Origin: Escherichia coli
GTDB lineage: Bacteria; Pseudomonadota; Gammaproteobacteria; Enterobacterales; Enterobacteriaceae
Length of the DNA stretch: 64,000 nt
Assembly (NCBI RefSeq): GCF_009931435.1
Contig: NZ_CP043414.1
Reading direction: 5' to 3' (one strand)
How positions within the stretch are numbered: position 1 is the first letter of the stretch; each line of letters begins with the position of its first letter. The translations under genes and the position numbers were made by a program. Below the pieces are notes generated by a model that saw only the letters and a program-made list of their open reading frames with translations, was not told where the DNA came from and did no database searches. Below, one piece after another: positions 58,299 to 58,709 of this stretch.

Positions 58299-58351
58299 TA
58301 CGAACAAGGGCTGGAATACCAGCCCTTGAAGCTGATGGCAAACACAAAATT

Positions 58352-58450
58352 GCCTGATGCGCTACGCTTATCATGCCTACGCGGTTCCTGCAAAATATTA
58401 AATCTGCACAATTTGGTAGGCCGGATAAGGCGTTTACGCCGCATCCGGCA
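58352..58450. repeat. BIME: two REP elements in the tdh-waaH intergenic region
   Basis: GCCTGATGCGCTACGCTTATCATGCCTAC and GTAGGCCGGATAAGGCGTTTACGCCGCATCCGGCAT match REP consensus types. Confidence 0.65.
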
Positions 58451-58709
58451 TAAACAAAGCGCACTTGGTCTACAATCTGAAAATCCAAAATACCAGCCCT
58501 TTTATCTGAGGATAATCCGTTAAATATGTAAAATCCTGTCAGTGTAATAAAGAGTTCGTAATTGCGCTGATCTCTTATATAGCTGTTCTCATTATCTCTC
58601 TACCCTGAAGTGACTCTCTCACCTGTAAAAATAATATCTCACAGGCTTAATGGTTTCTTAATACAAAGCCTGTAAAACATCAGGATAACTTCAGAGGTCG
58701 TCGGTATTT

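Follow-up and report, generated by a model that had tools for sequence, protein, structure and literature searches.

The stretch of DNA examined here (the window) is 64 kb of Escherichia coli sequence in which tdh, the last gene of kbl-tdh, is followed on the same strand by waaH. Both genes had been called in the original prediction, and the calls agree with the open reading frame list and with the annotation of matching records. The spacer between the end of tdh (58298) and the start of waaH (58710) is 411 bp. A hairpin had been predicted directly after the tdh stop codon, and a perfect one of 10 bp is present at 58305 to 58328, starting 7 nt past the stop (RNA fold, −20.3 kcal/mol; z, −5.3). 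The motif ATACCAGCCCTT occurs exactly twice on the plus strand of the 64-kb window, at 58316 to 58327 and at 58490 to 58501. Allowing one mismatch gives a count of 3 where 0.25 would be expected, and none of 100 shuffled sequences reached this count. The two copies were thus correctly recognized, but the first had been placed at 58317 to 58328. The full exact repeat is the 13-nt sequence AATACCAGCCCTT, found at 58315 to 58327 and 58489 to 58501 with a spacing of 174 bp and extendable to 21 nt at 86% identity. Its first copy is the loop plus the 3′ arm of the hairpin; the second, described earlier as a remnant of the hairpin arm, is indeed that. The features of the region are as follows.

57273 to 58298, plus strand: tdh coding sequence (L-threonine 3-dehydrogenase), last gene of kbl-tdh; open reading frame list and annotation of matching E. 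coli records.
58305 to 58328, plus strand: left copy of the tdh terminator hairpin, CAAGGGCTGG-AATA-CCAGCCCTTG; inverted repeat of 10 bp, 100% complementary.
58315 to 58327, plus strand: left copy of the direct repeat, AATACCAGCCCTT (loop, 3′ arm and TT); single copy in the empty alleles read.
58328 to 58351, plus strand: BIME-1 left end motif (GAAG CTGATGGCAAACACAAAATT); kept across paralogous BIME-1 copies.
58352 to 58380, plus strand: Y-type REP, GCCTGATGCGCTACGCTTATCATGCCTAC (GCCTGATG...ATCATGCCTAC), in CTAC-3′ orientation; sequence and alignment.
58381 to 58415, plus strand: long (L) linker of about 35 nt, homologous to the IHF-site linker; paralog alignment and a subthreshold Rfam ES036 match on the minus strand.
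58416 to 58449, plus strand: Z1-type REP, GTAGGCCGGATAAGGCGTTTACGCCGCATCCGGC (GTAGGCCGGAT...ATCCGGC), in GTAG-5′ orientation, hairpin intact; fold and partial Rfam match.
58450 to 58480, plus strand: BIME-1 right end motif, ATAAACAAAGCGCACTTGGTCTACAATCTGA; kept in paralogs.
58489 to 58501, plus strand: right copy of the direct repeat, AATACCAGCCCTT, lacking an adjacent 5′ arm; local fold, −3.7 kcal/mol; z, −0.5.
58500 to 58509, plus strand: original terminator T-tract and downstream sequence, TTTTATCTGA; alignment with K-12 and two other empty alleles.
58710 to 59744, plus strand: waaH coding sequence (UDP-glucuronate:LPS(HepIII) glycosyltransferase); open reading frame list and annotation of matching records.

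BIME-1 is defined as one Y and one Z1 REP in single copy, joined by a long linker (L) whose sequence is well conserved and in which an IHF site is often found (PMC3333891), and is about 140 bp long (PMC1187871). Two REPs in opposite orientation forming a BIME had been predicted, and they are present at 58352 to 58380 and 58416 to 58449. The Z1 REP (GTAG...CCGGC) forms a strong palindrome (−20.9 kcal/mol; z, −4.2) and the Y REP ends in CTAC. The two stand in inverse orientation as a single unit with no tandem array, and their linker aligns with those of four paralogs. The sequence is both extragenic, lying between tdh and waaH, and repeated, with a median of 30 to 40 matching places per E. coli genome. 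Every E. coli genome contains matches at other loci (about 150 to 156 nt, 85 to 89%) to the 161-nt insert between the 13-nt repeats. When the insert was aligned with the copies at ybiT-ybiU, dppA-dppB, yqjG-yqjF and ridA-mgtA, both REPs, the linker and the ends CTGATG...CAATCTGA were common to all. The end motifs, (GAGA)CTGATGGCAAAC... on the left and ...ACTTTGTCAACAATCTGA (also read as ...GCGCACTTTGTCAACAATCTGA) on the right, are common to 12 distinct loci. The motifs are therefore conserved as REP and BIME-1 sequences on alignment, and by the same alignments positions 58328 to 58480 are one complete BIME-1 unit (RIB or RIP) that includes the end motifs and extends beyond the two REPs.

Comparison with the paralogs also indicates that the tdh-waaH copy is somewhat decayed. 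The stem of its Y REP is weak (−6.6 kcal/mol; z, −0.06) relative to the Escherichia albertii ortholog (−13.1 kcal/mol; z, −3.7), and it has a T at 58374 where the paralogs and E. albertii have a G. In the linker core, the paralogs read TATTGAAT (minus strand, ATTCAANNNNTTG) and the window reads TATTAAAT, with an A at 58400, so that the opposite strand lacks the C of the TCAA core of the IHF site. A permissive IHF consensus scan allowing 2 mismatches was uninformative, with 710 matches against about 613 expected. As compared here, the copy is an element of a well-known kind at a locus that is empty in K-12, outside the catalogued K-12 copies. Like those catalogued as BIME-1, RIB or RIP by Gilson, Bachellier, Boccard and Oppenheim (PMC3333891, PMC1187871, PMC2817692), it has a Y and an inverse Z1 REP with a conserved long linker homologous to the one that carries the IHF site. 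It is also extragenic, single and about 150 bp long, follows the 3′ end of a transcription unit, and is present in some isolates and absent from others. Unlike them, it lies at a site empty in K-12 and its Y stem and IHF-core position are degraded. Partial copies exist as well: the K-12 aslB-aslA spacer (L224, 34219 to 34301) holds a truncated BIME-1 core (Y end, linker and Z1) with no conserved end motifs. The 50 kb of K-12 that were sampled contained no full BIME-1 copy.

A 611-nt query across the spacer located the site in 5,425 of 5,426 complete E. coli genomes. The element was present in only 12 of these 5,425 (query cover of at least 80%), while the remaining 5,413, K-12 included, are about 174 bp shorter. 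A BIME-1 copy is thus missing at tdh-waaH from approximately 99.8% of complete E. coli genomes. The predicted cluster, for which a comparison with other E. coli genomes had been proposed, is real but is not the usual arrangement of the region. Earlier remarks that it might act as a terminator, an mRNA stabilizer or a rearrangement hotspot were generic, and only the last finds support here, in the presence/absence polymorphism. A passage in PMC1187871, citing Bachellier et al. 1997, likewise describes whole BIME-1 copies as present or absent among isolates. The three empty alleles that were read (K-12, 2013C-4282 and 2011C_4247) contain one copy of the repeat. Nine more contigs encoding an identical Tdh protein all have the short spacer; since this protein is the common E. 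coli form, the Tdh-identical contigs yielded empty alleles only and no other species.

The sequence of the empty alleles is ...AAGGGCTGGTATTCCAGCCCTTTT... (also given as ...TAACACGAACAAGGGCTGGTATTCCAGCCCTTTTATCTGAGG...), with one hairpin directly followed by, and contiguous with, a T-tract. In K-12 the hairpin (−16.6 kcal/mol) is followed by UUUUAUCU, and direct reading gives GGGCTGG TATT CCAGCCC TTTTATCT, an intrinsic terminator. In the window, the bases after the hairpin at 58305 to 58328 are GAAGCTGATGG, the left end of BIME-1 (GAAGCUGA, GAAGCTGA), in place of the T-tract. The T-tract itself, at 58500 to 58503, stands behind the lone copy of loop and 3′ arm with no adjacent hairpin, and a GC-rich hairpin directly followed by a U-tract is absent. 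Read against the empty alleles, BIME-1 sits inside the intrinsic terminator of kbl-tdh, two bases into the T-tract, and the terminator is thereby split. Because most genomes lack the element and the empty alleles read hold one intact terminator, the repeated motif is, on this comparison, a target-type duplication of the terminator. A simple terminator scanner called no plus-strand site in 58200 to 58760, only minus-strand ones. The scanner also missed the plus-strand terminator of K-12, and the comparison of occupied with empty alleles is thus one of direct reading; it apparently counts the stem at its full 9 bp, which leaves a tail of 4 T in 8, whereas a 7-bp stem leaves the tail TTTTATCT. 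On the minus strand the scanner called the tdh hairpin terminator-like in both alleles (58305 to 58328 in the window, 1657 to 1678 of the K-12 sequence L001), with tails TTCGTATTAA and GTTCGTGTTA. Since that strand has no gene ending at the hairpin, the minus-strand call is probably a by-product of the palindrome.

In the paralog alignment, the other BIME-1 copies were likewise placed between hairpins that resemble each other. Further BIME-1 copies were collected by scanning metagenomes for the right-end motif (120 stretches) and by BLAST, giving 12 distinct loci in all; a scan of viral contigs gave 0 matches. For nine loci, the 40 nt to the left of the element were aligned with the 41 nt to the right, and all 72 mismatched left/right pairs served as the null (mean score, 5.7; maximum, 9). 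Five loci scored above it, as follows.

yqjG-yqjF: flank score, 21.
L198: flank score, 17.
ridA-mgtA: flank score, 16.
tdh-waaH: flank score, 13.
artJ-rlmC: flank score, 12.

Five of the nine independent scored loci, plus several judged by eye, thus have a terminator hairpin duplicated at their flanks, with a sequence particular to the locus. At each of the five, the left copy stops exactly where the element begins; on the right, the copy begins no more than 2 nt from CAATCTG at four loci and 9 nt later at tdh-waaH. Less regular cases were a degraded 19-nt match in the right position (L152), a 10-nt repeat, AATCTGACCT, running into the end of the element itself (L134/L212), and a contig (L148) with three copies, each with a hairpin-derived repeat that in one copy comprises the 5′ arm plus the loop. 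Left/right alignment of the dppA-dppB and ybiT-ybiU flanks gave nothing convincing. The duplicated sequence differs from locus to locus, and in every case it consists of a GC-rich hairpin with T's after it. At 8 of the 8 loci where the downstream T-tract could be read, it is found beyond the CAATCTGA end of the element, and at most of those the left junction falls 1 to 3 T's past the stem. Duplication lengths vary by locus (about 10, 12, 13, 18, 21, 24 and 25 nt) and so do not have the fixed length of a transposase product.

Matching empty alleles were found at three loci. At yqjG-yqjF, 77 genomes are occupied and the others are 178 bp shorter; at artJ-rlmC, 3,191 genomes, including K-12, are occupied and the others are 170 bp shorter. 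In both cases the empty allele is a single terminator. At these two loci, as at tdh-waaH, host-derived repeats flank the element and the empty site holds a single copy, the arrangement of a target-site duplication. Taken across loci, the ATACCAGCCCTT pair at tdh-waaH is one instance of a recurrent architecture, and the flank duplication may be the footprint of BIME-1 insertion. In the literature searched, which did not extend to Bachellier et al. 1997 and Boccard and Prentki 1993, no account of duplicated terminator hairpins beside E. coli BIME-1 copies was found.

Several copies deserve separate mention. L148 is metagenome contig JFBN01300879.1, non-K-12-like enterobacterial DNA with three BIME-1-like copies in 7.5 kb. 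One of these lies at a yqjG-yqjF-like site, so the yqjG-yqjF insertion is also common to divergent lineages. Within the window, a second, more diverged BIME-1-like element lies at 23091 to 23205 (75.6% to the tdh copy over 115 nt), flanked by similar GC-rich hairpins at about 23067 to 23088 (GCGGCGG...CCGCCGC) and about 23225 to 23248 (GGCGG...CCGCCGCC followed by TTTT).

To place the tdh-waaH event in time, species-representative genomes were scanned with Tdh, which gave two informative loci. E. albertii NBRC 107761 (L014) and SCPM-O-B-8794 (L012), a divergent genome labelled E. coli, both carry BIME-1 at junctions identical to those of the window. CUPF09 (L005) and an albertii-like metagenome contig (L211) have it at the same junctions too. 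The shared junctions read ...CCAGCCCTTGAAGCTGATGG... and ...CAATCTGAAA(A/G)T(C/T)CAAAAT(A/T)CCAGCCCTTT. Identity in the element was close to identity downstream of it, as follows.

Window versus E. albertii: element, 89.3%; downstream, 89.1%.
L012 versus E. albertii: element, 85.2%; downstream, 88.3%.

tdh identities in these divergent comparisons are 88 to 92%; L012 tdh is 92.4% identical to that of K-12 and 91.4% to that of the window. Because E. albertii and a divergent lineage have exactly these junctions and the divergence of the element tracks that of its flanks, the insertion appears to be old. The relation between element and flank divergence is that predicted by vertical inheritance of one old insertion, and it argues for this rather than for recent independent insertions or transfer. 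The most economical reading of the alignments is that the insertion predates the split of E. coli and E. albertii. A deletion between the 13-bp repeats would then most likely account for its loss from mainstream E. coli. This direction is a probable one, drawn from a comparison that covered E. albertii among the basal Escherichia species.

These comparisons lead to a main reading to which we assign a probability of roughly 0.8. A complete BIME-1 would have entered the tdh terminator with a 13-bp duplication in an old insertion, most E. coli would have lost it by precise deletion, and its role would be weak or neutral. At insertion, duplication of the terminator loop, 3′ arm and TT would have arisen, for which two candidate routes are staggered cleavage of an extruded hairpin and template switching at a fork stalled by the hairpin. 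Loss would have proceeded by slipped mispairing or recombination between the 13-bp repeats, leaving a single canonical terminator. The partly complementary REPs between the repeats (arms 58367 to 58380 and 58416 to 58429, 86% complementary) would help such loss. In carriers, intrinsic termination right after tdh would be weakened and transcription would continue into the BIME, giving tdh a REP-type 3′ untranslated region (UTR). The strong Z1 hairpin could serve there as a 3′-end stabilizer or partial terminator, roles that have been reported for REPs generally. Since the Y stem and the IHF core have decayed and the element is dispensable in 99.8% of genomes, the role of the tdh-waaH BIME-1 is probably weak or neutral.

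The order of events could be the reverse, with the empty site ancestral in E. coli and BIME-1 gained later in the lineage of the window, by new insertion or by import from another Escherichia species. Such a late gain would account for the rarity of carriers (12 of 5,425). It would also suit the unusual divergence of the window from K-12 (L001) at tdh (95.8% identity) and waaH (93.4%), next to the recombination-prone waa cluster. The terminator loop at 58315 to 58318 is a further point in its favor. This loop is AATA in occupied E. coli and in E. albertii, TATC in L012 and CUPF09, and TATT, the exact reverse complement of AATA, in all three empty alleles read (L001, 1666 to 1669; L006; L007). 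Simple deletion from a window-type allele would leave an AATA loop, so TATT in the empty alleles counts against it. The predicted AATA-loop deletion product had no full-length exact match in the complete genomes, although variants at downstream bases could hide at 95% identity. The identical junctions in E. albertii, L012/CUPF09 and the window, and the equal divergence of element and flanks, nevertheless speak against a later gain, and recent import from E. albertii or L012 is unsupported, since the window tdh is no closer to either than K-12 tdh is. We consider a late gain unlikely.

The difference between the AATA and TATT loops could reflect inversion of the hairpin loop by intrastrand template switching, or two substitutions. 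The 2013C-4282 allele is empty, and yet the first 351 nt of its waaH match the window at 100%; among E. coli strains, identity ranges from 92% to 100% at the 3′ end of tdh and the 5′ end of waaH. This mosaic indicates that recombination has moved alleles between backgrounds, and the tdh-waaH-waa segment is, by these identities, a divergent, mosaic haplotype. Positions 44000 to 64000 of the window are about 96 to 97% identical to most E. coli, and the yicJ/selC part (3029 to 8000) is 99.6% identical to many strains. Positions 1 to 8000, by tRNA-Sec (selC) and yicJ, match mobile elements elsewhere (a Tn3-like TnAs3 transposase, IS1 and tyrosine integrases); they are covered to at least 80% in 5 genomes only and, as mobile-element DNA, are unfit for lineage typing. 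The spacer of 2011C_4247 (L007) has a 12-nt tandem duplication, TGTAAAAATAAT, upstream of waaH (alignment columns 355 to 366) that is not in the window or in the six other aligned sequences.

Instead of being weak or neutral, the composite might have been kept for function, through a long-range stem formed by 58306 to 58317 and 58490 to 58501 around the BIME and followed by the U-tract, or through REP- or IHF-dependent control that couples read-through from tdh to the downstream waaH gene. The two 12-nt arms are 92% complementary, the region folds strongly as RNA (−72.5 kcal/mol; z, −5.6), and REPs have been reported as context-dependent regulators in 3′ UTRs (bioRxiv 10.64898/2026.03.23.713779). 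Against such a function, the minimum-free-energy and centroid folds both hold the local hairpin and no long-range stem, E. coli carriers have a degraded Y REP stem and a degraded IHF-core position, and the element is absent in 99.8% of genomes. A retained function is improbable, to about the same degree as a late gain. Much less probable still is a small RNA gene in the region, derived from REP sequence and of the naRNA4 (CssrE) or ES036 (CssrF) type. Rfam matches to naRNA4 (RF02564; 58419 to 58455, 40.5 bits) and ES036 (RF02751; 58373 to 58414, minus strand, 31.8 bits) suggested it, but both are below the gathering scores (59.5 and 37.6, respectively), and the naRNA4 match covers only one REP hairpin of a 77-position model. 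Such matches are expected of any REP or BIME-1 linker, and the scanner found no promoter-like site in 58200 to 58760. The small RNA was rejected on the grounds that the matches are subthreshold and only REP derived. That ATACCAGCCCTT is repeated by chance, with no relation to the BIME, a reading for which only the shortness of the motif speaks, is refuted by the shuffles, by empty alleles with exactly one copy and a length difference equal to the repeat spacing, and by recurrence of the architecture at other BIME-1 loci.

The old insertion with later precise loss has partial parallels in known systems. Pseudomonas REPINs, which are REP doublets mobilized by RAYTs, likewise consist of two inverted REPs and a spacer gained or lost as a unit, and their excision has been observed in populations (PMC3337134). 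REPIN excision leaves a long palindromic REP singlet, whereas loss at tdh-waaH would take the whole element with one copy of the host-derived repeat and leave the host terminator. REP dimers in Anabaena variabilis, Thermomicrobium roseum and Halothiobacillus neapolitanus are likewise tied to a palindromic target (PMC3733652). Those dimers split the palindrome into two arms, while E. coli BIME-1 has copies of the hairpin, or of a part of it, in direct orientation on either side. IS200/IS605 single-strand transposition and BIME cleavage by TnpA_REP (RAYT) are hairpin dependent and strand specific (PMC3333891), and a strand-specific process of this sort would suit the single orientation that BIME-1 keeps with respect to the terminator T-tract. 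The IS200/IS605 family, however, leaves no direct repeats at the flanks, and TnpA_REP cleaves at C^T sites, while the junctions at tdh-waaH and the others observed are not simple C^T joins.

Transposase-independent precise excision of Tn5 and Tn10 occurs by slipped mispairing between the target duplications and is favored by the inverted repeats between them. The proposed loss at tdh-waaH resembles it in having short direct repeats around inverted repeats and a deletion that restores the target exactly. It differs in that the BIME-1 repeats are 13 bp here and 10 to 25 bp elsewhere, with no fixed length, and imply no DDE transposase.

More generally, and as a tentative proposal that we put at somewhat less than even odds, BIME-1 may enter terminators in one orientation, 1 to 3 bases into the T-tract, duplicating all or part of the hairpin (about 10 to 25 bp) and so supplying the substrate for later exact loss. 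In vivo insertion of REP/BIME sequences has been described as not established (bioRxiv 10.64898/2026.03.23.713779). If the proposal is true, the BIME-1 flanks, including the ATACCAGCCCTT pair, would be the footprint of the mechanism by which REP/BIME sequences spread in vivo, and terminators would be a preferred target. The mechanism might then be hairpin-directed single-strand cleavage by a REP-associated transposase or template switching at a stalled hairpin. Duplications that are locus specific, hairpin derived and consistent in orientation, together with allele pairs at three loci, constrain models of insertion and explain why BIME-1 copies can vanish cleanly. For tdh-waaH itself, what was described as a REP/BIME cluster is a rare, probably ancestral allele and not standard E. 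coli sequence, and the split and intact terminators form a natural allele pair for what BIME-1 does to a 3′ UTR.

The right end of the element, (CA)ATCTGA at 58475 to 58480, recurs 4 nt past the insertion point (58504 to 58509; TTTTATCTGAGG), and at L134/L212 the element end AATCTGA itself lies within the duplicated hairpin arm. The match between element end and target may be microhomology or coincidence.
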